A stretch of 63,971 nt of DNA, the filler included, from Circinaria calcarea (Eukaryota): NCBI GenBank assembly GCA_051942165.1. It is 4 parts of 4 records of this genome, joined end to end, with 100 filler letters (N's around TTAATTAATTAA, not from the genome) between each part and the next. Parts side by side here need not be neighbours in the genome. Positions count along the whole stretch, not along the records: positions 33,132 to 49,588 come from JAVECS010000321.1; 3 more parts are not named here. One strand, written 5' to 3'. Below, in pieces: positions 33,132 through 49,688 of this stretch. The stretch's first letter is position 1, and every line of letters begins with the position of its first letter. Both the position numbers and the translations under genes were made by a program. Under the pieces are notes generated by a model. The model searched no databases, had not been told where the DNA came from, and saw only the letters and a program-made list of their open reading frames with translations.

Positions 33132-33437
33132 GATGTTTGCAATCTCCACGGCGGATGAACCGCTTGCACCAGAGTCGGGTGCCTCTTGTAGATCTAGCCG
33201 GTTGCAAAAACGAACCTGTTTCCCTGACCTCGCTGTACGTGGCAGTCGTGTGGTCGTGTCACCCTCCCTGTAGCTACTTGTGTCGAGCTCCGTGAATACC
33301 GACATTCTTCGGTTTTTCGGAAGCGCTTCGGATGATGAGAGAGAGGGAGCGGTCGAAGGAAATTGCGTGCACAAACGATGATCAGCAGGTAGAAGTGGTG
33401 TTGGCTCCTCGAAAGAACGGGCGCGTAACGACGCCAT
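33132..33437 (-). CDS. Hypothetical protein, N-terminal fragment running into contig end
   Basis: Open frame from ATG (MASLRARSFEEP...RRMSVFTE...KQVRF) to the gap; no recognisable domain. Confidence 0.35.
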
Positions 33438-35248
33438 GATGTTGTAGGGCCCAGGCAAACGGAGCAAAGGGAATGGAGATGAGGTCGAAAATATCCAACA
33501 GCTGGTGGCAACACTGTGGTTCCAACTCTCATAGAGACATGATGAAGTGAGAAGAATAATCGTTTGAGAGCTGGAGATGGGTCAATCGGGGCGGGCAGGA
33601 CCAATCCAAGTTTGATGATGGGCTGGGCTACCTGACATATCTCGAGATTGCAGGAGACTCTCCCCGTAAACCAGTTGCGACCGCAGGGCGAACGAAAAAA
33701 TCCCAAAGGAAATGACGAAAGGCAAATTAATTTAGCTATGGGCCTAGCGCCGGGGCCGGCTCTGCCAAAAACAGGATCTCGGACGGATGCAAGAGCCAAT
33801 CAGTTGAGAGCCAACGCATATGTGGCGCTTTTTGATGGCAACCGTCTGCTCGATTAGGTTTCAGCTCCGCTCGCCAATGCCGACCTATCAGCTATAGCTC
33901 GAGCTACTTGGGAGGAGTGCCTGGTGCGGGGGCGAACGCTCTCGACCCATGAATTACACCGAATTACATGGCGGACGGAGGGACTCTGCAGCATACGTAG
34001 TGTTTCGGTATCCGATGAAGGCCACAAATGAACTGTCACCTGCAAGGGCCCGGAGGCCCTCCGCAGTAGCACTTGTTGGTATCTGAATGGCTGGCCGCTA
34101 TTCCAAATTGACACTGCAACGGCCGGCCGGATGGAGAGTAGGAGTCGTTACCGTTACGTCACAGTGTAGAAGCCACTACTGAAGAGAAGTACCTATATGG
34201 AGTGCATCGTGAGTGGACTTGGGTCTTCACAGCACCATGCCAACGTCTTCAAGTCGTAGAACTCCGATGAAATACTGCGTCTGTATTTTGGTGGCAACCT
34301 CCACTCTGTTACCCCTCAGCCTCGAAACGGTCCGATCGGTACCTTGCCGGACAACTGTCAGATCGAGTACAGACTACGCACACACAAACGAGTTGGAGAT
34401 CGAATATCCCAAGCAGGATCCTAGTGAAATGCAGCTCATAAGCATCATCTAAATGTAGACCCTCTCCTCCAATCCCCCATCCCCCTTCGCAGGAAGATCG
34501 CTCCTCGACAATCCCACTACGCAGCACAGCAGATCACTTCTCCTTCAATGCCTAATACAGCATGCGGCCAACCTGCCACGACAGCTGCAATTCTATCTTG
34601 AATCTCTTAAACTTCCTCGGCATAAAGAACAGACACAATAAAAGACGGGCCATTCGGAGAGACCGGGGAGAGGGGGAGGGTTTACACCTACGCTAAGAGG
34701 TCTTAGCAAACCCTAATTGGAGAAGCCATGTGATCTCTTCATTCATGGGTTCAGGTCCCCGCAACTTTGAACCACGGGAACTGGGAATAGATGTGGGAAA
34801 GTACCATGGCTCATCACATATGTGAGGCATGGTACGACTAGGCCAAGGACTCAAATTGGACAAGGTGGGTAAAACAATGCAGGTTCCATGTGGATACCAT
34901 GGCCTTCCTTACAGCTACGCTCGCCATTCTGCATGCAATCTGAACAGGGTCGGTCGGACCAGACCCGAGAACAATCTAACAAATCCGAATGCGAGGACAC
35001 TGAAATTCCAGTCAATATTAATCATAGAATCAGACGTCTATATATGGTGAAAGTATCCAAGCCTTGAGGCGCCCTAGACCACTGTACATCTCGATCGACT
35101 CCGCAACTTCACTTGGTATATCAAAATCATTAAACGCTCCGCTCATGCTTAGAACGCCAAAAATCCGCTGCACACCCCTCCCGAGTTCCCATCTATTGTT
35201 GCGCCTCCTTAGTTACAAAGCCGCTGCGGCAAAATCACCCCGCACATC

Positions 35249-38035
35249 TTAAAATGTGAACAGCATCAGCCCGGGATTCAGTGCGATCGGTAACACGAAA
35301 TGCGAGAACACACATATCGCCAGCGGGAAGATGGCTTGGAAGGTGGTGATGCGCCATAACGGAGGGGCAATGGTGGCGAGTACGATGATACCAGCGGTAG
35401 TAACGATCGTCCACATGAACATAAACTTGAACTTCTTCAATAACTTGGGTATTTCCTGGAAGAAGGTGGTGTTGTCGACTTCCTTGGCAGTGGCACCCCA
35501 ACTCATATCAATAGAGAACATGTGGGAGAGAAGAGCCTGGCTGACGTGGAGAGAAATACCACCAAGGAAAATGGCGAGGAGGAAAACCCATTTGAAGTTT
35601 CCCCACAGCGCGGCTATCAGCCCCTGCTCGCCGAGTCGATACCGTAAGATTGCGAGGGCGAGGTTACCGATTGCCGTAAAAACAATGATGATCGAAAAGA
35701 AAATTTTGAAGGAGTCGATGTAGTATTTGTCTAGCCATCCATTGAACCATCCAACGACACAGTAATTCATCAGGGTCAATAGCCAGGCAGACCCAATAGC
35801 GTAGTAAGTTCCGATGTAAGCCATGATGGTAAGCTTAGATGGCAGGGGCATTCTAGATTTGATGAAATTCTTGAACAGTGGAGTGAAGGGGCCTCGAACG
35901 AACCAATATCGGAGAGGGTGAAAGATGAGTTCGTTGCAGCCATAAGCATACTTCTCCCAACGAGCAAGTTCATCGTACACGGTAAGGGAAACACCCTCTT
36001 TGAAGCCTTGGCCGGTATATGCAGCTAGGCGAACAACGTAGCCGACGCTCTGAAGCCTTAGTGCCATATCGAAGTCTTCTGACACTGTTTTCTCGGACCA
36101 ATATTTCTCAGTTCCATCTACCTCATCGTTGTATGCGATGTCTTGCATAGCAGACCATCGTAGAAGAGCATTGTGACCGACAAAGGGAGCAACATCGCCA
36201 TTGGCAACAGCAAAGGTGATGGCTGTATAAATAAGATTTGTGAAGAAAGTAATACCGTTCTCGAAGAAACTAGTAGTAACGTTCAGGACACCGGCGGTGA
36301 ATTGGATAATAGCAACCTGAGGAGAGTGTTCCATTTCGCTAACGGCGTCTAGGAAGCAATCTTCCGGAACACGAGTATCTGAATCCACGATGAGAATGTA
36401 GTCGCCGATCCGAATATTGCCTTCTGCCCAAGTGACGCCTTCGTCTTCAGCGACAACCTGTTGCAACGAGCTATCATCGGCGTCCATTTCATCGTCGTGG
36501 GTCCATGTGGTGGGCCGTTCAATACTTGCGAGCTTATCTTCAACTCTTGCGCTGACAGCCATGGCGTAATTCATGTTCGAGGCCTTCTTGAATTTCCCAG
36601 GCCGGATGAATCCTCTCTCGCCTTCGGCTGGTTTCGGGTTGTGCTTTGGCCGTGAAACCCAGCCGATATTGTGCTCGTCATAAAAGTCCCTCCTGGCCTG
36701 GGCGTCTTCATTAGATATTATCTGCATCCCATCATCGTTGACGAAGATGTTTGCAGAGCCACCTTGCATCTCATATGTGGATATGGCGGCTTTCAAAGAT
36801 CGAATAGTCGGTTCGATGACAGAGTAAAGACCTTCCTTATAGACCGGACATTGGATGGTGACGTGTGGAAGGTCACCTTTTGAAATACGAACCGGGGCTA
36901 CGCCGGAATAGAATTTCGAGTTTTCATTGATCTGACTGATTGGTCCAATCATTTGAGCCAGACAACCGATGACTGACTGCATGAAAAACTAGAGAATCGA
37001 ATTAGCTCATAGATATTTCCAAAGGAAAGAGAGCATGCTGGACATACCAGAGCAAGCCACATTTGGAGGGGTACCACGGCGGCGAAAACTAGCCGCATCA
37101 TGGACTTGTCAACTGCGATTTCAATAACAATGTTTCGCCAACCGGCGCCAATAGCAGCTACTAAGATGATCAATGTGAGAGCGGTTATAGTAGCTTGGAT
37201 CAGCACCAGTTTCCGTGGTTTTTCGGTGATGAGTTCCTCGTAAACAATCTCACCATCTGGTCCTTCTTGGGGAACTTCTGTTATGAGCACGCTTTGGCTT
37301 TTGTTTGTCTTCTCATCGAATTCTGAGCTGCTATCCCAGATCATAGACATCAACTGTTCTTCGATTTTTTGTGCGCGGGATAACAGGTGTTTGGGTTCAT
37401 CGTCCCACACCACGAGAATTGAGGTGTCCTTGATGAAAGCTGCGAAGTGATGCTTCTGGCACGTGGGGAGAAAGGTGATGTTAGGTAGAATCTGAATGCG
37501 CAAGCCATCCTTTAGCGGAACGTACGGAAGGTCCTGACGCCGCAGGAAGAGTTTGATGACACGAGTGTTAACCGTCATGGCAGTCTGTACTCGTACGTTA
37601 GCCCGATAAAGAGACCGCAATCTCGATATGAGCACTACATACCCTGACATTAAGTCTAGTTACCGCGTCGAAGAGATCGCCTCGGTGATTGGAAAGCTCT
37701 CCTGGACACGCCGTGTAGGCGTCACGCCCCTTTTTGAGGACTACACCCTCGCCAAGACCACCGTTGGTCCACATGCGTTCCAATTGCTGCTGGTGTAGCC
37801 AGTTGACCATGACATCGGCCTTGATCTCCATTATGTCGTCCATGGTAGAGTTTCTGAAATCCCCAGAGGGATACAAAGAGGCGGGTCGAGATCCCGAGTA
37901 GGCTGGCGTCGCCGCTCCCGAAAACGATGGCGTTACTGGGGAATGAGGGGAGTTGGTCATTTCCACACTGGAAGCTGCGGCGGAGGCAGCTTTCTTCTTG
38001 TCCGCCGGATGGAAATACGACTTGAAGCCCTTCAT
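35249..38035 (-). CDS. Membrane-bound glycosyltransferase family 2 protein, 3 exons
   Basis: PHVTIQCPVYKE, KKASNMN, IVDSD, VSEDFD and ELARW (QxxRW-like) motifs plus C-terminal TM helices; N-terminal exons at 38035 and 37586. Confidence 0.9.
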
Positions 38036-40100
38036 GATGGCGGTAGAGTCGGAGCACACACGCCCAGTGTATTCTTGAATGTGTTCTTGAAATGTACCTT
38101 CAGATCAAGCCCAAGCGAATGAGGGCCGGTCGGAATTAAAAATAGTTCGGTAAGCGAATGATGTAGAAAAGGTGCGGACAGAGCCAATTACATATGGTAC
38201 GATGTTTAGCGAATACCAGAGAGAACGAAGGACGACGACACCCGTAGAAACCGGGCTCGAGCGCAGGCGGGAGGATACAGTACCAAAAGGAAAGACAAAG
38301 AGTGAAAAAGCGAGTAAGAAAGGCGGGCGGCCGACTTGATAAGCCCGGTTCCTGCTAGTACTGCCCATCAGTGCTCAGTACGCGCAGGGTCCCAGCCGGA
38401 CCTCCTGTGTGGCGAGCTGAAATTCCCACTGGATGGACTGCCGGTCCAGGATCAGTGGCTAGGCTGCTCAAAAGAGGATAGGCCAATCATTGAACTAGAC
38501 ATCTTTCGGTCCTCACTACTTTACACTTTGCTCCCGAAACAGGGGCCCTTCCCATCTAGCGGCCGAGAGCATGCTGGATTCGGTTGGACGACCATACTAA
38601 GATCGAGACCCCTCATCACCATTCCTCCATTCTGGACGGTTCAGGAGATGGCTAGTCAGGGGGGGTGGGAGTCGAACAGCCTTGCCGTGTGCTGGAACTT
38701 GGAAGGCGCCCCCGGTCCTACGCAGTCTTTGTGATCGATGGCGGAAATGAAATCTCGTTCCCATAGACCTCGCTTGCCTCAAAGCGATACGCGAAGAACG
38801 TGGGCTGAAACGCCACAATTCTACGGAATCCGGAATACGAAGGAGGAGGGGAGGACCAAAACAATGGGGCCGCCGAGGTGATGATAGGCTGCACAGCACG
38901 TATGCAGTACGGAGTGAGTAGAGTCACCTGCAATGCACTTCGCTTGGAGCTTTGTACGGGGCAACTGCATACACGTTGGTGATGCCGAAGAAGTCGGCAG
39001 ATTTTGGCTCATCGTTGTCATAAAGGTTTGATACCCTTGAACTGGCCGTAGCAGCAGAAGATGACTCCTGTCCACGGACCTGGGAAATATCGGGCGGACA
39101 TGGGCCGTCTTTTGGGGCAAAGTGCATAACCTTGTGGTGCGCTAGGCTGTCACTAGTGAGGCATCAGCCTATTTGGTGCATGGGCAAAACGCATCGGACC
39201 TCTGCCAAGTCATGACTCGAGCGGCAGTGAGCTTTAAGTTAGGAAGCGCGCTAGAGAATGACTTTTGCATCGGCTCACTGCGGTATGAATGCTCCGAGAC
39301 CCGTCCAGATCCAACAGATTTCGGAGATCAAGGCTGCTCGATGAGGTGAATATCCCTGTCAAGTCCATCAACGACGATCATTGAAGTCTATTGGTATAAT
39401 TAAAGCATCCACCAATACTCCCGTTAAGCTACATCGGGGAAAAGTCGGACAGGCCAGTTTCTCAACGGACGTGGCACTTGAGATAATCTGGAACCACTTG
39501 ATAGTCGCTCTGTGCAAAACAGTCTGCATATCTAAGTTTGGAAATTCTCTGTGGTTTACAATAACGAGTAAATGTTTGTCTCAGTAACCAACTGCTGGAT
39601 TGCCTAATCGTCCGTCGAGTCGAACACTTCGGTTGATGAAACAGTAAGACAGAGTCGCATCGGTTAGCGCCCTCCTAGCAAACGACTTGTACAGGGCGCT
39701 CGGGAAGACACGGGAATCGAAGCGGCAGGATGAAAAGAAATCTCCAGCAAAAAGCATTACTCCTTGCCGGCTCCGAAGATCTAGCAGTCGATTGCAGAAT
39801 CCTACCACCTAAATATATACTAGTAATCATCTATATTCCAGTCCCTTGAATACCGTCACATTAGCAAGGGACGTATCTCCCATATGCCAAGTCAGCCATC
39901 AAGTCGCACCAAGGTGGGTGAGATTCAAGAACACACATGTGATGGCCGTTCAGGTGGCTCCTCTGGACTGGTACAGCAGCTAAAAGACAGCTCTGTCGTC
40001 AAGCAAGTATGGTCGTGCAGATACTTACGCAGAGTGAGGACTTTCGGATGGTGTGCCATGGATGAGAAAAGACGGTTTCTCGTTGACGATACTCTAGATA

Positions 40101-40340
40101 GAGCCCAGCAGATTGGAGCCGACCTGACGTCAAGGAAGAGGAGTTGCATGGCTGACATGTGTTCAACCCGTGCTACGACGCCCCTTGCCTTTGGAGTTCT
40201 CTCCTTATCAATGATAGCCCATGTGTCTAATCGGAAATTATGCAAAGAGAGCCCCCACATCTGTACCTCCTTATCGCCATGCAATTTAACGCAGTGGAGA
40301 TTGCCGGGACTCGGGACGATCCATCTGGCATGTAATGCCA
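40101..40340 (-). repeat. Diverged duplicated segment, copy A (possible decayed fungal-type protein kinase fragment)
   Basis: Shares GAGATTGCCGGGACTC and CAGCAGA(T/C)TGGAGCCGA..CTGAC.TCAAGG.AGAGGA..TGCAT.GC.GACATGT with 41327-41520. Confidence 0.75.
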
Positions 40341-40664
40341 TCCTCCTGACGGAAATTGAAACGATTCTAACATTTACTGCAAGGGGAGATGGGGGTGGGC
40401 AAGACGAATGAATATTGGACAGGCAAGAATTTCAAATGATTGAGGCGTTAGCTAAATTTTCTGAGAGTTTTGTAATGTACGGGAGCCCGGTACCAATATC
40501 GTATGGTAGAGCCCCAGGTAGCAGGCCTACCCTCATTGGCGCAGAATCCAAGCAGCATATTAAGGTTCACAGCAGAGCATAGCTTCATTGTAGATGTAAC
40601 CACACACCCACAGTAGATGTTAGCGCGTTCTCGACAAAACCTGATGCCCTTGCAAAGCCCTGTC

Positions 40665-40900
40665 GACTGCAGCACCTGTGGCATGCATGGCCACGTGGCA
40701 ATCAACTGCCGTCGAGGTCATAAGGTTGGAATAAGCAAGATCACAGCCAGGTCGAGGAATTGGAACCCGGCTGGGGCAGAACGGGCGAAGAAGGAGGAAG
40801 AGAAACAGGAGAATTGAGAACAAGGAAGCATGGGCGAGAAAAAAGCAACAGATGAACGAGGATAAAGCGAGAGCTAAAGTGGAGAAGGAGAGGAGAGAAG
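40665..40900 (+). pseudogene. Frameshifted partial copy of the zinc-knuckle gene at 47125-48744
   Basis: CSTCGMHGHVAINCRRGHKVG..K.T.RS..NPAGAERA aligns with CTTCGMRGHVAINCRRGHKVG..K.T.RS..NPAGAERA; similarity continues (KEAWARKKQQMN..KARAK.EKER) only after a frameshift near 40810. Confidence 0.85.
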
Positions 40901-41326
40901 CAGAAGAAAGAGACAGGGGTTGGAGGGGTAGGGAAAATAGGGAAAGGACAGGGTTGGAGGAGGAGAGGAATAGATCGGGAGTGAAGAAAGAACCTGTGAG
41001 AAAGGAGGCTGTATAAATTGTAGGAGCGTGATATCGAGGATATCGTCCTGTGTATATTCCAGCTTTCTTTTTGAGCCAAACTGTCGTTTGGACCTCGTAT
41101 GAATATCGTAAGAAAACCACCCTAACATCTATTATGCCTGCGACCACAAGTGTAAACTGGGACGGTCCCTCCCAATGCTTAGGCGAGAAACCACCCCCCG
41201 CCCCCTTTCCAACGCCGAGTATGGCTCTCAAAGTTCCCACATTCGAGCGGAAGCCGGCGAGGGCAAGTACGCGCTTCGACAGAGACACGAGAAAGGAGGG
41301 AGCTGGAGAAGTCAGAGAGATACCCA

Positions 41327-41520
41327 GAGTCCAGCAGACTGGAGCCGAACTGACCTCAAGGGAGAGGAACTGCATAGCCGACATGTATCAAACTTTCAAC
41401 GATGCTGCCTTGACTTTGCTCTCCAAGACAACAAGTCCTTGTCGATGATAGTCCCTATGTAATTTAGCGAAGTAGAGATTGCCGGGACTCAGGGGGATCT
41501 ACCTGGCATATTATGCATCT
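41327..41520 (-). repeat. Diverged duplicated segment, copy B
   Basis: Same orientation as, and visibly alignable with, 40101-40340, with an internal deletion. Confidence 0.75.
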
Positions 41521-41680
41521 CCATTTATTCAGGTAGTCATGCGGAGATAGTAGACCCGTAGCACAGCGATTTGTAAACAGCGTAGGAAGTAAAGTAAGAC
41601 CCAAAGGAAAATAGCAAATCCAGCTGTGCCAGACCAAGAACGAGAGCGTCCAGAAAGACCAAACAAGAGCCAGTATTAGA

Positions 41681-41914
41681 CCAGACTGGAGAAATACGAA
41701 CCTCTGTAATGCCAGACAGGAAACACAAACATACCTTAGTCATGCCAAACTAGAATATAAATTCACGTCCGTCATGCCAGACAGGAAACACAAACATACC
41801 TTTAGTCATGCCAAACTGGAATATAGGCGCCTCTGTCATACCAGACAGGAAACACAACATGCATTAGTCAGGCCAAACTAGAAGAGAGGCTCACTTCAGC
41901 CATGCCAGGCTGGA
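41681..41914. repeat. Tandem array of eight ~32-nt units with alternating A/B (~64-nt) higher-order structure
   Basis: Core CCA(G/A)AC(A/T)(G/A)GA (last copy CCAGGCTGGA) starts at 41681, 41712, 41745, 41777, 41811, 41841, 41873 and 41905. Confidence 0.9.
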
Positions 41915-41956
41915 ATGGGATAAACTGCTGGACTAGGCAAGATCAGGTTGTTCTGA

Positions 41957-43837
41957 TCACTTGGAGGAAGACGCTCTCCGGAAGGCTTGCCGCAAAGTAG
42001 TCAGAGTAACGAAAGGGATTGCTGGATCTACTGGCTCATGGTCACAATTCTTTCTATTGGTGACTTTGTGGGTCGAATCGATGCCATTACAGCATCCAAT
42101 ACACCTGTACGTGTACGCAACGTATTTGCCGGTGGCAATCTCGTACATCGGAGTCTTGTCGATCCTTTTGGTGTCATCTGCTTTGCATATGCGGCACCAA
42201 ATAAGAACCTCAGTAGGATCACCACGATAAGGATCAGCTTCACGTTGGAGGTGCCTTGTGACACTGCCACCCTCCTCCCTTCGACCAGCGTGATTGAGCA
42301 TGTTGTAATGCGCAAGCAAGTTGTTCACCTTCGTCGAATTTTTCCTTCCGATCAGTGAATTGGCGTTTCCATACAGCTTGGAAGATGCCAATCCAGCCTT
42401 TCTTGTCATAAGACGGTGGATTGCTCCTGTCAAGGTCTGATTTGGACAGTCCTTCAGCAAATCCTCCACAGCAGCTTTCCCATTGATACCCTCACGAGCT
42501 AGCCAGAGTATGACAGGGTTGGCTAGGGTCTCAAATGTTCTTGGTGTTCCACCATCCCGTTCATATATCGTATCCCGAATCAAGATATCCAGCGCATTGG
42601 GGTGCTTCTCCCTACGAAATCGTTGATAGTAGGTGGAATCCATATCGATACCAGCAAGGGCTCCTGCAATATTCCAGGCGGAATCGCACTCCTTTCCAAT
42701 CGCCGTCTGGCTCGGATGCAACATCGCTTCCGGGTGATGCGTCCAGATAATCAAACGCATGATCTTGTTGTCCTCAGCAATATAAATGCTGGCAGGCACC
42801 CGGATATCCTCGCAAAACAGGAAAAAATTGGTGAGCTGTTTGGCGTATCGATTTGTGAACGAGATTCGGTTGGCGACACCAACAATCACCCAGACTTTGG
42901 CAAGGCTGGATTGAAAAATCCAGTTAGTAAACTCCTCATGGATATTTCTTACCTTCTCATCCCAGAGATCCATGGGCGTTAGTTTTTTCTGTCTTTCCGC
43001 CTGGGACAAAACCTTCGCCCGCCGTAAATACGCATCAGCCCACAGTGCGCCCTCTGTCGGTAACCCCTTTTGGTAAAGTATCAATGGGCAAGGGCTACCC
43101 AAATCACCGGTCTCACCCCAGGATAACTCGCTGGAGGTGGTGAAAGTTGGCCAATGCATCATGACTGCGAGGGGGTCGTCCAATGTCCCTGTGGGATGAA
43201 CGAGCATATCTGCTGGAAGACCAGACAGCTTGACTTCCTCAGCCACGAAATGCTGGAATTTCCTGACCATGGTACTGGACTGGGAGACTCCTAGGTATAA
43301 TGTCAGTTTAGTTCATATATAAAGGTTAGTGTATCGACCCAATTGCTCCCTTCCTTTCTTTAGGAACTCCCGCAGCATTATCTTGTACTCCGCCGGACAG
43401 TCGTCAAAGAAAATCTTGAGATAATAGGCGCTATCGTGCTCTATTATGGGCGATTGATCTTGCGATATTGAGCGGTCAACTTGATCCGCCAGGGCGTCCT
43501 CCAAGATATTCCTCATCTCTAACTCTGCCTCGTCTCCTACCTTCCGTCTCTTTGCCTGGCCACACTCACTCAGGGCCCCAGTTGCAGGCCCGCTGAGCCT
43601 GGGGGCCTTGACCTCTCCAACCTTTTGCCCCCTACCCGAGAATATATCCTCCTGCCCAATCTTCACGGCCCCAAATGGTATTTTCTCTTTCCTTCTCTTC
43701 TCTTCAGCCTCCCGCTCCAGTTCATCCTCCCTTTTCCTCTTCCTCTCCAACTCCTCCAGTTCCCTCCTTTCCCTTACCTCCTTGGGGACACGTACGGGAG
43801 CAGGTTTGGGTTTGAACTTTAGGGTTGGGGGAGCCAT
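41957..43837 (-). CDS. Uncharacterised protein: charged N-terminus, possible uracil-DNA-glycosylase-like domain, C-terminal CxxC..CxxC cluster
   Basis: ORFs 43313-44029 and 41957-43270 share a frame and are separated by one stop inside a candidate 48-nt intron (43338-43291, GT..CTGAC..TAG); motifs AKVWVIVG, IIWTHHPE and CRIC..CIGC. Confidence 0.7.
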
Positions 43838-44827
43838 TCTTATGAAATTGATGGTTTTTGCTGTATATAGAAGTCTATCTACCAGTGTATCACGTTGTAC
43901 AGACAATGGAAAAGAGATTGTAATCTGACAGTATCTGGACAGTAAGAACTCAGGGAAACATAAAATCCACGCCGCAGTCCCATCCCCCACATCCGGACAT
44001 CTCACCACACGAATATGGCCATGCCCCACATCTCTCAGGATAAAACTGGCAGTCGCTCTGGACGTTCCCGGGAATTCGGCATCGCCATTGGCTGCTAATG
44101 GGCTTGGCGCATTAGCTGCCCCCGTTAAGTCTTGCCATTTCGAGAAAATCTCTCACTACCCATACCAATTGACTGAAACACAAGAATGATAACGAGCGAA
44201 GCATTTAGCTAGCATGATCGAAGCTGCGAGCATCTTATAGAGACAAAGTTGATGTATTTTAGACAAGAATTTGTGGAGATCCACTGTTATGAGTGGCGAC
44301 TTGAGGCGACTTGAGGCGAGTGAGCAGAAGTCGTTGCCGAGGATAACAGTATGGTACTGGAGGGCCCCTCATACAGGATTATAGCTCATTAAATTTATGA
44401 ATAAGACCTGGAACGTAAGTCCTGTTTCAAAAACTCGATCAAAAGGTAGTAGGAACGGAGCACCCCTCATGTACTAATTGTTTTTTATCGGCAACGATTT
44501 CTGCACATCGGCCTCGACTGCAGCGAAACGATATTTGGTGTTAGATGAATTTGGACGTCAGAATAAGTGCCATAAAGCAAAGAAAGGGGTAAGTATCATA
44601 TATACCCCTTCAAGTACTGGAGGATACTTCCGAGGCGGACAGTCTATTATAGCCACCAAGGGTTTAGCTAGTACCTCCAGAATACGCCCAAGAATAGCAT
44701 AAACACCGAAGGCGTTGATTGCTGTTATGGGAGAGGAAGAAGAAGCATGTTAGAAGGCCAGTGAGCCTTAAAACCTGAATCAGGCAATAGATAGAATGAA
44801 GTAATTCTACCACCGTGTTACATAAAG

Positions 44828-45195
44828 ATGACCGATACATTCTCTCCCGTCTTACATGGCATTGACCAAGCCGTTCGATGGAGAGTAGTATACCCTGGAG
44901 AGCCTATACCTCCACCTTATGATATTCTCACAAAATATTCTAAGCCACCAGAGGAACTGCAGCGTAAGGCAAGGCGGGATCTCGATAAGGTAGTTGCTGC
45001 AGCAGATGTTAAGAAAGCCCCCCCGAAGCTGAAGGGCAGGAAGAGAAACCGGGACCAAATAAAGCCTATGTCAGGGCTTAATGTTGATGAACTGCTCGGA
45101 CGCAAGAAGAAAGTCAAGATTTCTCGAGATAATGCCATTCCTGATTTCCGACAAATATTAGATAATACAAAAGACCTGAAGGCGATAGAGATATG
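44828..45195 (+). pseudogene. KU80: Internal fragment of Ku80
   Basis: DTFSPVLHGIDQAVRWR..PGEPIPPP..LTKYSKPPEEL..AADVKKAPPKLKGRKR..KPMSGLNVDELL..KISRDNAIPDFRQ resembles the post-core region of filamentous-fungal Ku80 as I recall it; no recognisable Ku80 sequence on either side. Confidence 0.8.
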
Positions 45196-45856
45196 GCAAG
45201 ATAGCTGCTGTACTACCTTTCCACTTGGACGATGACTTGGGTACTCGGATCATGGTATAACCAGTAAGTGATATCGGTGAAGGCTTCGGCCGAGGTCATT
45301 TTTAAATAAATGCAACTTTTATACCGCTTGTCCAGGGTCATGGATTTCAGTAATCTCGATTTCGTTACGAAGACCCCTTCTTGTAGATGGAAGACAGACC
45401 CATCAGGGCTAATATAGAACATGAACATGCGGCCTTCTATTACGCTAAGAATAAACTCTTAGTTCGAACAGTATTATTGACTTTGGTTGTCGTTGATACT
45501 GAGACTTACGGCTTCTCGGTATTCTCAGCTTGTCTATCCTCTTCACCAATGTCAAAGTCAATTAGGTTCACCCGTTGCTTGCATACAACGCCATTCAGGA
45601 TGCGGCAAACTAGCGTGAAGGTTATTGGCATAGAGTTCACTGTCGCAAATGGCTCACTGTCGTAAATGGCTTACTGCGTTCATTACATTCGCGTAAAAAT
45701 CACTGTCGTCAGTGGCATACCATACGGTACAGTGGCATTGCGACAGCGACCTACTAAGAATCGCGATAGTAAAATATGCCTTTTTAAAATATCTGGAAAT
45801 ATAATACCATACTGGAAGTTAAAAAAAGTGCTAAACCGTAGAAAAAAATTGCAAAA

Positions 45857-46039
45857 TTCCGGCACCAAGAATCGAACTCGGGTCTCTTCGGCACACAAGT
45901 GACTGGGATTTTGATTAGCGTTTCGGACTTTGAAGGAGTCGAAACAGGCAAAGGAGATCGGAATTATATGTTAGGCAACACAGTTTTGGTAAAGGGAGCA
46001 CATACGAGCGAAGTATCCTAACCGCTAGACTATACCGGA
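45857..46039 (-). tRNA. tRNA-Glu(CTC) with a 103-nt GT-AG insertion after position 34 (46005-45903) and an 8-nt canonical intron (45899-45892)
   Basis: Full cloverleaf: acceptor TCCGGTA/TGCCGGA, D arm GTCT-AGCGGTTA-GGAT, anticodon stem CTTCG/CGAAG, T arm CCGAG-TTCGATT-CTTGG, discriminator A, downstream T-tract. Confidence 0.85.
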
Positions 46040-46752
46040 TATTTCATATAATTAAAGGTTTCTATAAAATATATATTGTAAATTTTCACAAATTTATCAT
46101 GTTCGCTTGGGCCGGCGCAATCCTACAAGCCATGTATTTGGCACTGTGCAGCTATATCCCATTTATTTTATTACTGAATTTATATACTATGTACCTGGGA
46201 GCATGCCTTTACTACGTGACAGACTTGGTCAGAACTGCTCAAGTTATATAGGTTCTTTCTATTTTTATTCTAAAGATGCTCAGCGGCTAGTGGGTGACGA
46301 AAACTTTTGCCATGGGGACCACCGCGATCTGTGGCTTAGTTATGACCATTAAATTTGTGAGGATCTTCAAGAATCAAAGACCAGGATGGCATACTATGGA
46401 GTTGGTTTACGCCAAAGTAATCCAGCGTACCAAACTTTGTGCCAAGCGCGAGCGTGGGCTCCTTTCCACGCTCTACATTGGGAAGAGCGTAACTACTAAC
46501 CATCACGCAATACTCCGTATCAGTTTTATTAGTTACTCACCAGCTACTAATTAATACAACTACGACAATGCAAGGACATCCAAGTAGTGGGAAACCATAA
46601 TTGATTGTATCCCGATCCAAACTATTATACAATACAAAAAACATTTTCGCCATAGCCGGCAAACAGAAAAGTCGAAGCCCTGGTATATCGACAGAACCTG
46701 CTAGCATATCCGTTTGAATTCTGGCTGTGGGTTAATGCATCTGATAGTTAAT

Positions 46753-46880
46753 CAGGAATTCGTTCGCACATCTGCATCGAGACAGGAATTTGTTAGTACG
46801 TCTGCATCGAAACAGGAATTTGTTAGTACGTCTGCATCGACACAGGAATTTGTTAGCGTATCTGCATCAAAACAGGAATT
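46753..46880. repeat. 30-bp tandem repeat, ~4.3 copies
   Basis: Units CAGGAATTTGTTAGTACGTCTGCATCGA.A start at 46753, 46783, 46813, 46843 and 46873 (partial). Confidence 0.95.
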
Positions 46881-47124
46881 ACCTTTGACTTGAGCATCTG
46901 TCATCAGATAGGCACGGCCTTCGATCCTTGCCATGCCAGGCAGAAACAGTATTGAGACACAGAAGAGGGTTATTTGGCTGAGCGTTGCTGGATGCTGCAT
47001 GGCACGACCATTGAAGCTTGCCTGAATACCCCTTGTGTTTTGAGGCCCGTGATACGGGATATATGCGCTCCGGCCTATCTGAGGCCCATAGGCCGGAGAA
47101 CTCGTATCCAGGCGCAGAAGAGGG

Positions 47125-48744
47125 TTATCTGGCTTTGCGTTGCTTCGCCTTGTCTTGCAAGATTTCGGCGCACTGGTTGTAGCCCTCCCTCCAGGGCGCC
47201 CAATTTCGGCGAACCAGCTCAGCGTGCTGGAAAGGCATGCCGAAGGAACCATGCTGACGCTCCGGACCGTAACCGGTTGGAACTCTCCAAGAAGCCCATC
47301 GTTCCGGGTTCTTGGGGTATTCGGCTCGGCCGATCCTTGCTACCTCCGCCTGGGAATACGAAATCCAGGCTGGATCTTGGTCGTCGAAGACCGGAAGATC
47401 CTCGTCCCCTACCAACGGAGGAACGCCTGAGCGCTCACGCTCCACTGGTTGAGGTGGCGGAGGATTGCTGGGCCCCCCTCGCTGCACAGACGTAACCTTC
47501 CTGGCTCCGTCCCGAATCTCTACCCTCCTCTGTGTCTCATTGAAACGAGGCCTATCGGCCTCTTCCTCCCCGAAAAGTCGCACTCTCTCCCTCCACGCCT
47601 CCGCATATTGCTCCTCTTGGCGAGCAGCAGCCGCAGCGTCGTGCTCTCTCACACCACCCACAAAAGCTGCCCACGGGGCTGCCATTTGCTCCTGAGGAGC
47701 CCGTGGGGGGCGCGCTTGCTGTGAGTAGCCACCGCGCTTCTCCGGCCGTCGGAAAGCCTCGGCCGGAGGCTGCCCTGAGGCGCTCATGGACGCGGTGCGC
47801 TTTTTGGATGGCGCTTGGGGTGGTGCTGGCTGAGGAGCCAATCTTTGCGGAGGCTGGACCTGCCTCGCCTGGCCGTAACCAGTCACGGTGGAGCTGGGAG
47901 CAGCTCTTGATGTTGACTGTTGGACCGTAACATGGTCAAAGCCCGGTTGACCAAGCCGTATATCTTGTGAGCGGCGAGGCGGGAGACTGGCGTTCGGATC
48001 CAGCCGAGGACCGTATGATCTCGGCGGCGGCGACCTCTCTTCGAATTGCGGACGGCGAGGACGACTCCCAGGAGTCCAGCTTGGTGCTGCTGTCCTCATC
48101 GCAGAGGGAGCCGCCGGCGGCAATCGGGAGCTCGAGGGCGGGAAATTGACCCGAGGATCAATGCCGCCTTGCTCGTCACCAAACACGGAAGCAGTCTCGA
48201 AAGCCTCCGGCTGATATCGAGGCGGATTGTGCCTCGGAGGCGGAAAGGAGACGCGGGCACGCTCATCGGACTGCTCTGGCTCGTACACAGAAGCAGTTTC
48301 GAACCCGTACTGGTTGTGATGGTAAGGCGGCTGCCTTCTAGGCTCGAGCTCGCCCTGGTAACCATATCCGGGTCCCAGCAACATTCCCGGTCTACCCCTT
48401 TCTTGTCCGCCCCTTTCTTGTCCCTCCCTTTCCATTCTCTCCTTCTCCGCCTTATCCCTCGCCTTCGCCGCATTCATCTCCTGCTTTTTTCTCTCCCAAG
48501 CCTCTTTCTCTTCTATCCTCTTCTGCCTCCTCTCCTCCTCCTCCCTCGCACGTTCTGCCCCAGCAGGATTGTACCTCATGGACCTATTTGTGACTTTCCC
48601 CCGTCCAACCTTGTGGCCTCGACGGCAGTTGATTGCCACGTGGCCACGCATGCCACAGGTGGTACACTCGATACGGCACGAGGCGGTAGGATGAGGGCCT
48701 TGGCATTGGGCACATGGTGGGCCGGGAGGGAAAATAGTCGACAT
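47125..48744 (-). CDS. CCHC zinc-knuckle protein with charged coil and long Pro/Arg/Gln-rich disordered region
   Basis: 539-aa ORF; CAQCQGPHPTASC and CTTCGMRGHVAINC knuckles; internal duplicated FETASV..EQ..D.R..FPP motif; branch point and TAG acceptor immediately upstream of the ATG. Confidence 0.75.
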   Translation of the reverse strand: MSTIFPPGPPCAQCQGPHPTASCRIECTTCGMRGHVAINCRRGHKVGRGKVTNRSMRYNPAGAERAREEEERRQKRIEEKEAWERKKQEMNAAKARDKAEKERMEREGQERGGQERGRPGMLLGPGYGYQGELEPRRQPPYHHNQYGFETASVYEPEQSDERARVSFPPPRHNPPRYQPEAFETASVFGDEQGGIDPRVNFPPSSSRLPPAAPSAMRTAAPSWTPGSRPRRPQFEERSPPPRSYGPRLDPNASLPPRRSQDIRLGQPGFDHVTVQQSTSRAAPSSTVTGYGQARQVQPPQRLAPQPAPPQAPSKKRTASMSASGQPPAEAFRRPEKRGGYSQQARPPRAPQEQMAAPWAAFVGGVREHDAAAAARQEEQYAEAWRERVRLFGEEEADRPRFNETQRRVEIRDGARKVTSVQRGGPSNPPPPQPVERERSGVPPLVGDEDLPVFDDQDPAWISYSQAEVARIGRAEYPKNPERWASWRVPTGYGPERQHGSFGMPFQHAELVRRNWAPWREGYNQCAEILQDKAKQRKAR

Positions 48745-49362
48745 TTTCTATAAAGCGGTGAGTTAGTCCATCTGTTAATAATCTGTTAACGAAGCGAGTA
48801 TGTAAATGATTTTTTTATATTTGGAACTCTGAATGAACAGTCGTTATGCAGAAAGAGAAAACAGTGGATGCCAGAACTTGGAAACGCAAAAACGACAATG
48901 TCATGGTACTCACAGATTTGCTTCTGAAGCGTGTTTACGTAAATGATGAGATGATCAGTCTATAATCAGTATACCGTTTAATTTGATTTTACGGCCATGG
49001 TCGCTGATTGATGTTATGTATGCTGAAGTGGGAATGGGGGGAATGGCCAAATGGAAGTGGGTATACGCCCCGAAGGATATTCCCTTCACGTATTATTCAC
49101 CCCTAATTCTGACGTTATTGATATGCAACCACCGCAAAATCCTATTACGTATTATTGGGGAACGGTACGATAAACAGAAGAATTCATATATAAAGTCTGA
49201 ATTGTAGAACATACAAGACTAAATGGAGTTGAAAAGGGGCAGCATGAAATGGGAAGGAAATTTACTACCATCGTATTTCAACCATCTATCGGTAGGCAAT
49301 CCAATCATGTACAAGAAACCACCAAGCCCAAGTCCTTCATCCTCTTCATCCACCACATTTTT

Positions 49363-49588
49363 TCATAACCTCTCCTTCAGATTTCCCTTCATCCGCCTCT
49401 CCACCGCCTTCATATACTCCGTCGTCGTCGCATAATCCCCCCTCTCCGTCTTCCCGCACGCCAGCGCCAGGTCCTTGGTCATGATACCATCCACATCCAC
49501 CGTATCCACGCACGCCTGCTCCAAGCTCTCCGCAAACGCCACCACCTCGGGCGTCTCGTCCAGCGTGCCCCGCTGCGCCAACCCGCGC
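49363..49588 (-). CDS. IDP1: NADP-dependent isocitrate dehydrogenase, C-terminal end (rest lost at contig end)
   Basis: RGLAQRGTLDETPEVVAFAESLEQAC..GIMTKDLALACG..TTEYM matches the IDH1/IDP C-terminus. Confidence 0.88.
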
Positions 49589-49688
49589 NNNNNNNNNNNN
49601 NNNNNNNNNNNNNNNNNNNNNNNNNNNNNNNNTTAATTAATTAANNNNNNNNNNNNNNNNNNNNNNNNNNNNNNNNNNNNNNNNNNNN
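49589..49688. other. Artificial contig linker
   Basis: N-run with TTAATTAATTAA, 100 nt. Confidence 0.99.

Follow-up and report, generated by a model that had tools for sequence, protein, structure and literature searches.

The DNA analysed here (the window) is a 63,971-nucleotide (nt) stretch of the genome of Circinaria calcarea (GenBank assembly GCA_051942165.1), in which four parts from four records are joined by 100-nt fillers; positions 33,132 to 49,588 come from JAVECS010000321.1. A complete tRNA gene lies on the minus strand at 45857-46039 and is the only tRNA called by ARAGORN in the 64-kb window when introns are allowed. The gene is interrupted by a 103-nt insert within the anticodon and by an 8-nt insert at the canonical tRNA-intron position. 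The features of the gene and of its flanks are:

45857..46039, minus strand: whole tRNA gene, 183 nt in the genome and 72 nt without both inserts (Rfam RF00005, ARAGORN)
46006..46039, minus strand: exon 1, 34 nt, tRNA positions 1-34 (sequence, ARAGORN cloverleaf)
45903..46005, minus strand: spliceosome-type insert of 103 nt that separates anticodon positions 34 and 35 (computed; its removal shifts the ARAGORN call)
46000..46005, minus strand: candidate 5' splice site GTATGT (sequence)
45914..45919, minus strand: GCTAAT, resembling a branch point; the presumed branch A is at 45915, followed by 12 nt up to the 3' end of the insert
45903..45905, minus strand: candidate 3' splice site CAG, in the insert end CCCAG (sequence)
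45900..45902, minus strand: 3-nt middle exon TCA, which supplies anticodon positions 35 and 36 and A37 (sequence, ARAGORN)
45892..45899, minus strand: 8-nt canonical tRNA intron CTTGTGTG at 37/38 (ARAGORN i(38,8) once the 103 nt are deleted)
45857..45891, minus strand: exon 3, positions 38-73 (sequence, ARAGORN)
45842..45856, minus strand: Pol III (RNA polymerase III) terminator-like T runs, T4 at 45853-45856 directly past the discriminator and T7 at 45842-45848
46062..46075, minus strand: TATA-like stretch rich in A+T, located 23-36 nt ahead of position 1 of the tRNA (from the sequence)

Exon 1 holds the 5' strand of the acceptor stem, the D-arm, the 5' strand of the anticodon stem (CTTCG), C32, T33, and C34. 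Exon 3 continues with C38, the 3' strand of the anticodon stem (CGAAG), the variable loop AGAC, the T-arm, the 3' strand of the acceptor stem, and a discriminator A. All 21 stem pairs in the ARAGORN drawing are Watson-Crick or G-U. The conserved core of the cloverleaf is recognized both by ARAGORN and by the Rfam model RF00005, which aligns to the locus over model positions 1-71 with 41.0 bits (gathering score 29) and an E-value of 2.3e-7, and opens a 113-nt gap within the anticodon loop. The complete minus-strand cloverleaf described in the original prediction is thus confirmed. The whole-window Rfam search at the gathering threshold returned no matches, the tRNA surfacing only in the E-value search at the level of the locus, and ARAGORN run without introns called no genes in the whole window. 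Four overlapping stop-to-stop open reading frames (ORFs) cross the locus, and none of them matches a Pfam family.

The A+T-rich stretch upstream of the gene may be a promoter element of the kind known from fungal Pol III genes. The T4 and T7 runs behind the gene may act as a Pol III terminator. T runs of 5-12 nt are located 2-27 nt behind the tRNA genes of Aspergillus niger NRRL3 (PMC6108506, supplementary file 6).

The two interruptions were examined by constructing spliced versions of the gene in silico with a script and running each of them through ARAGORN. The genomic sequence is called as c[45857,46039] tRNA-Thr(cgt) with a 111-nt intron at position 38, the automated call that had been foreseen. 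When the 103 nt at 45903-46005 are deleted, the call changes to tRNA-Glu(ctc) with an 8-nt intron at 37/38, and the deletion of both pieces results in a 72-nt tRNA-Glu(ctc). Deletion of the canonical 111 nt results in Thr(cgt). The anticodon CTC in a 7-nt loop therefore arises only when both inserts are out, whereas the genomic reading is CGT. These calls bear out the earlier description of the loop, in which the 103-nt piece follows C34, starts with GTATGT, carries GCTAAT near its end, and terminates in CCCAG, and in which its removal leaves a CTC loop with 8 nt at 37/38. Among 739 GT..AG candidate deletions with splice signals in the window, one creates a tRNA that spans the junction, and it is 45903-46005; a control in which both ends of the candidates were moved by 7 nt also gave one spanning call.

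The isotype of the tRNA body was assessed using two proxies, the A. niger NRRL3 tRNA table and a set of metagenome tRNAs called by ARAGORN. The gene layouts and sequence comparisons taken from the table are our reading by eye and not the interpretation of its authors. The spliced gene has a T1-A72 pair, an 8-nt D-loop, and the 4-nt variable loop AGAC. This combination of pair and loop sizes is present in 12 of the 12 Glu(CTC), 5 of the 5 Glu(TTC), and 14 of the 14 Asp(GTC) genes in the table, and the variable loop AGAC itself also occurs in Asp rows. None of the three Thr(CGT) genes has this layout; they have a GC start, a 7-nt D-loop, and a 5-nt variable loop.

The metagenome set consists of at least 120 loci that match an 18-nt word from the D-arm, and it is biased because every locus was chosen for the same word. 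ARAGORN called 190 tRNAs among the matches listed, 63 of which share at least 70% identity with the body when the anticodon is masked. These 63, all selected on the D-arm, comprise 43 Glu, 8 Val, 5 Gly, 4 His, 1 Leu, 1 Gln, 1 Asp, and no Thr. Two uninterrupted, eukaryote-like Glu(CTC) genes in the set (L093 and L105) have the same 13-nt anticodon-arm core as the spliced form. Judged from its sequence, the body of the tRNA appears to be of the Glu/Asp type rather than the Thr type, in agreement with the original assignment.

The listed metagenome D-arm matches are generic tRNAs of archaeal, bacterial, algal, or other eukaryote-like character. Many archaeal-looking tRNA genes with the same D-arm word (loci L004, L063, L028, L032, L035, L069, L072, L107, L109, and L120) carry long inserts such as i(39,54), i(42,62), and i(39,75), which are located in the T-arm or within or close to the anticodon loop. 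These inserts are presumably introns of the bulge-helix-bulge (BHB) type and unrelated to the interruption described here.

The 8-nt piece CTTGTGTG has the properties of a canonical tRNA intron. Introns of eukaryotic tRNAs are located between N37 and N38, and C32 or U32 pairs with the antepenultimate A or G of the intron (Phizicky and Hopper 2023, PMC10275265; this review and the other publications cited below, apart from the A. niger table, are cited from the parts of them that were available). After the deletion of the 103 nt, CTTGTGTG is placed at 37/38 (ARAGORN i(38,8)), and C32 can pair with the G at intron position 6 of 8. The introns of the A. niger Thr(CGT) genes are 7, 8, and 13 nt long, each with an antepenultimate G (PMC6108506 table), and a canonical intron of 8 nt is therefore ordinary in this group of fungi. 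The subunit TSEN54 of the tRNA splicing endonuclease (TSEN) is described as a ruler, with the enzyme measuring from the tRNA body (PMC10275265).

The 103-nt insert was compared with mRNA introns of the window, which has a G+C content of about 49% and carries split genes. The mRNA introns were verified by explicit exon joining, with continuity or extension of the ORF as evidence; a looser ORF-bridging scan (126 regions, 6 of them with full-signal candidates) was set aside as too permissive. In an MFS transporter gene, the exons of which match MFS_1, joining keeps one frame open for 476 codons over three introns:

MFS transporter intron of 57 nt: 5' GTAAGT, no CTRAY-type branch, 3' CAG
MFS transporter intron of 106 nt: 5' GTAAGC, branch CTGAT, 3' TAG
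MFS transporter intron of 113 nt: 5' GTAAGT, branch CTAAT, 3' CAG 13 nt past the branch A

A fourth candidate intron of the transporter gene (from 51544) gave no open frame and was excluded. On the minus strand, removal of 37585-37642 and 36989-37047 (58 and 59 nt) extends the longest ORF from 263 to 596 codons. Both of these introns start with GTATGT, carry GCTAAC or GCTAAT, and end in YAG. The removal of 37456-37525 shortens the ORF, and this candidate was rejected. The gene with the two GTATGT introns (36200-38800, minus strand) encodes a protein of at least 596 amino acids with membrane-like segments.

The tRNA insert has the signals of a U2-type intron, with a GTRNGT hexamer (GTATGT) at its exact upstream end and a CTRAY branch motif shortly upstream of a YAG 3' end. 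Its length of 103 nt is within the range of the five verified mRNA introns (57, 106, 113, 58, and 59 nt). In its hexamer, branch motif, branch distance, and length, the insert therefore fits the verified mRNA introns of the window, in line with the match of signals described in the original prediction. The original prediction also stated that the insert lacks a run of four or more T, and took this as consistent with Pol III read-through. The observation is correct, the longest T run being 3, whereas the argument fails: 44569 of the 63262 same-strand windows of 103 nt (70%) and 540 of the 998 near the locus (54%) are free of TTTT. Since such windows are common, the lack of T runs carries no weight.

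The probability that the arrangement arose by chance was estimated using two null models. In null A, CTCGTA and C38 were kept fixed and a random 111-nt canonical intron was placed between them; a full-signal GT..AG piece that restores the Glu anticodon loop appeared in 75 of 200000 trials. Null B started from an intact Glu gene with a random 103-nt insertion. The insert had to begin exactly with GTRNGT, finish exactly with YAG, and contain CTRAY 6-35 nt before its end, a combination that was obtained in 0 of 200000 trials. Neither null accounts for CGT in a body of the Glu/Asp type.

We consider it fairly likely that the 103-nt piece is a spliceosome-type intron that splits the anticodon of a tRNA-Glu(CUC) gene and adjoins a canonical 8-nt intron. 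It is probably a nuclear gene for tRNA-Glu(CUC) in a filamentous ascomycete, with two introns of unlike kinds that are three bases apart. Pol III would transcribe it from the internal A and B boxes and stop at the T runs. The spliceosome would then excise the 103-nt U2-type (GT-AG) intron in the nucleus and join C34 to U35, which would produce the anticodon CUC, and the remaining 8 nt would be removed by the tRNA splicing endonuclease and a ligase. The order of the two splicing steps matters, because an endonuclease acting first would remove 111 nt, so that the Glu-type body would end up with the anticodon CGU. If the two machineries were to act in the nucleus and the cytoplasm, respectively, the spliceosomal step would naturally be the earlier one.

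Several observations weigh against a functional spliceosomal intron at this position. The stretch between the branch motif and the 3' splice site of the insert is not pyrimidine-rich, and the exon context, CTC followed by TCA, is not a classic proto-splice site. The loose composite GTRNGT...CTRAY...YAG occurs at 37 sites in the window, compared with a mean of 36.6 in shuffled windows (30 shuffles, both strands). The splice signals of the insert thus count only because they are placed exactly where the Glu anticodon is restored. By eye, the body shares no more than about 60% identity with A. niger Glu(CTC), and its anticodon stem has CTTCG as the 5' strand, similar to the CTTCA of one A. niger Thr(CGT) gene. 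None of the metagenome matches listed carries the insert, and a search for the junction pattern gave one match in genome contigs, in a bacterial metagenome-assembled genome and not in a tRNA, and none in viral contigs. No orthologous locus was identified among these metagenome matches or in the genome and viral contigs. Furthermore, Glu(CTC) is a multi-copy family in another member of the same subphylum, A. niger, which has 12 intronless genes for it.

This last point bears on the alternative that best survives, namely that the insert is a genuine spliceosome-type intron, acquired for example by reverse splicing or by an introner-like insertion, in a gene that is unexpressed or not productively spliced, while Glu(CUC) is provided by uninterrupted genes elsewhere. 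The present copy may be redundant and dead because A. niger has 12 Glu(CTC) genes, and a freshly inserted intron would have perfect signals whether the gene works or not. The cloverleaf contains no mismatched stem pair, however, and the T-run terminator and the box-like elements are intact, which argues against a decayed copy. We regard a dead or redundant copy as unlikely, although it is the alternative to be taken most seriously. Further evidence against it comes from A. niger.

The A. niger study states, in the part of its text available, that fungal tRNA introns longer than 100 nt were not known, and that 14 ARAGORN models had been discarded for having an intron of this size (PMC6108506). 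In its table (rows 218-222, 262, and 49-51), five of the six rows labelled 'Pseudo', three Trp(CCA) and two Asn(GTT), were read by eye as clean tRNAs that are interrupted by a GT..AG piece of 55-59 nt. The three Trp rows share the same exons (28 and 45 nt) and contain inserts of 57, 55, and 56 nt with differing interiors, which start with GTAAGTT, contain TTCTAACA, and end in CAG. Their spliced junction has the sequence of the sole annotated, intronless A. niger Trp gene. In the two Asn rows, the D-loop is interrupted by inserts of 57 and 59 nt that carry GTAAGC and TTACTAAT and end in AAG, and their removal yields tRNA-Asn(GTT). Across the 'Pseudo' copies, the GTAAG and CTAA[CT] motifs are kept and the intron interiors have diverged.

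These interrupted Trp and Asn genes are multi-copy, with identical exons, which argues against the view that genes with such inserts are dead. The three Asn models annotated in A. niger measure 95-128 nt, two have the anticodon ATT, and none of them resembles a tRNA by eye, so that the table contains no credible uninterrupted Asn gene and the interrupted ones appear to be used. If this reading is right, Asn(GUU) comes only from interrupted genes, and such introns would have to be removed in vivo. The C. calcarea gene is similar to the A. niger rows in that tRNA genes of filamentous ascomycetes are broken by GT..AG pieces and then miscalled or discarded by annotation pipelines. Unlike the C. 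calcarea insert, those of A. niger hit the anticodon stem (Trp) or the D-loop (Asn), are shorter, and have no adjacent canonical intron. Because the A. niger genes are multi-copy, they offer evidence of conservation that the present locus lacks. The A. niger rows support the kind of feature and not, by this comparison, the present locus itself.

A spliceosome-type intron within the anticodon also opens the possibility that the gene serves two anticodons, CUC after spliceosomal excision and CGU on a Glu-type body after the action of the endonuclease alone, with the balance of the two pathways, or their separation between the nucleus and cytoplasm, setting the decoding. We judge this to be improbable. 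If true, the cell would face a problem of quality control or possess a regulated switch for recoding, for which no parallel is known.

It is unlikely that the gene contains a single long canonical intron, with the endonuclease removing 111 nt at 37/38 and the mature tRNA reading CGU as a Thr isoacceptor. The genomic ARAGORN call is in agreement with this, as are the C32 and antepenultimate G pair, which fits a 111-nt intron equally well, the Thr-like 5' strand of the anticodon stem, and the record of eukaryotic tRNA introns of up to 133 nt (PMC10275265). The acceptor start, D-loop, and size of the variable loop, which occur in none of the three A. niger Thr(CGT) genes, speak against it, as does the absence of Thr from the 63 nearest bodies among the listed matches of the biased metagenome set. 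In addition, a random canonical intron rarely produces the observed arrangement (null A), and the length would be exceptional according to the A. niger authors' statement on fungal tRNA introns.

A random 103-bp insertion that turned a Glu(CTC) gene into a pseudogene, with accidental splice-like signals, is very unlikely. The loose splice composite is as frequent in shuffled windows as in the real one, and the locus was picked out of very many windows examined, both of which would favour an accident. Null B, in which exact-end signals never appeared, argues against it. Furthermore, no target-site duplication was seen around the insert, the 64-kb window contains no second copy of it that would mark it as an introner-like or other dispersed repeat (the best other match is 14 nt), and the remainder of the gene is undamaged.

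The BHB motif defines the multiple and non-canonically placed tRNA introns of archaea, Cyanidioschyzon, and nucleomorphs, which are cut by the endonuclease. A BHB with two 3-nt bulges and a 4-bp helix was sought at the ends of the insert, and the best fit has three of the four central pairs and one outer pair. For comparison, four central and at least two outer pairs were attained by 824 of 20000 random site pairs. The minimum free energy fold contains no BHB-like motif, and neither the precursor (z -0.9) nor the insert (z -1.5) stands out in its structure. An endonuclease intron of the BHB type at 34/35, comparable to those of archaea, red algae, and nucleomorphs, for which the spliceosome would not be needed, is suggested by the multiple tRNA introns at non-canonical positions in other lineages (PMC3978253, PMC4390854), but is the least probable explanation given the poor BHB fit and the presence of all three spliceosomal signals in the insert instead. 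The tRNA genes of archaea, Cyanidioschyzon, and nucleomorphs resemble the C. calcarea gene in having more than one intron, one of them outside 37/38 (PMC3978253, PMC4390854), an arrangement that causes standard tRNA finders to miscall such genes. They differ in that the C. calcarea insert failed the BHB test and has GT...AG ends with a branch motif.

An anticodon-splitting spliceosomal intron in C. calcarea would have its closest counterparts in other non-coding RNA genes. Spliceosomal introns in U6, U2, and rRNA genes, which the original prediction had mentioned, are already in print, and so are those in U1 and U5; the determinants of their insertion into non-coding RNAs are described as unclear (PMC5855946, citing Tani and Ohshima 1989, 1991; Takahashi et al. 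1993, 1996; Bhattacharya et al. 2000). In the available part of that U6 review, tRNAs are absent from the account of such introns. No description of spliceosomal introns in tRNA genes was found in the full-text literature, a search with most subscription journals outside its coverage.

The insert resembles the U6 introns of Schizosaccharomyces pombe and other fungi, as both combine GT-AG ends and a branch signal within a short, structured, non-coding gene with Pol III features. Reverse splicing or some comparable accident presumably gave rise to both. The C. calcarea host differs in being a tRNA, which is not a part of the spliceosome, and its intron splits the anticodon and adjoins an intron of the endonuclease type. 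Because of this adjacency, a single RNA of 72 nt would be processed by two splicing systems. The piece CTTGTGTG matches the canonical TSEN introns in its position at 37/38, in the antepenultimate G that pairs with C32, and in its ordinary length (PMC10275265). The 103-nt piece differs from these introns in its position at 34/35, its spliceosomal signals, and the lack of a BHB or bulge-helix-loop fit.

Reviews describe, in the parts available, a single kind of intron in eukaryotic nuclear tRNAs, which is located at 37/38, cut by TSEN, and unrelated to spliceosomal introns (PMC10275265, PMC12530127). If the preferred reading is true, an anticodon assembled by the spliceosome would break this separation of tRNA introns from spliceosomal introns, and spliceosomal introns would be able to settle in Pol III genes beyond U6. 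It would also explain why tRNA finders miscall such genes, here as Thr(CGT), or discard them, as with the 'Pseudo' rows of A. niger. Since interrupted genes are miscalled or discarded, the tRNA gene counts and isotype sets of fungi may be systematically wrong.

Several other features are located in the vicinity of the tRNA gene. On the minus strand, a run of N at 49346-49644 breaks an ORF in what seems to be the C-terminal part of a metabolic enzyme; the window contains 264 N in total. A 540-amino-acid ORF at 47125-48747 (minus strand) begins with a CX2C...C zinc-knuckle-like segment, which is followed by a long proline- and arginine-rich body. A shorter ORF, 7 kb away at 40620-41387 (minus strand), has a similar glutamate- and arginine-rich stretch. 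Pfam searches with these two zinc-knuckle-like or arginine-rich ORFs, and with four larger neighbouring ORFs, identified no family. The two ORFs may be remnants of a repeated or mobile element that flanks the tRNA region.

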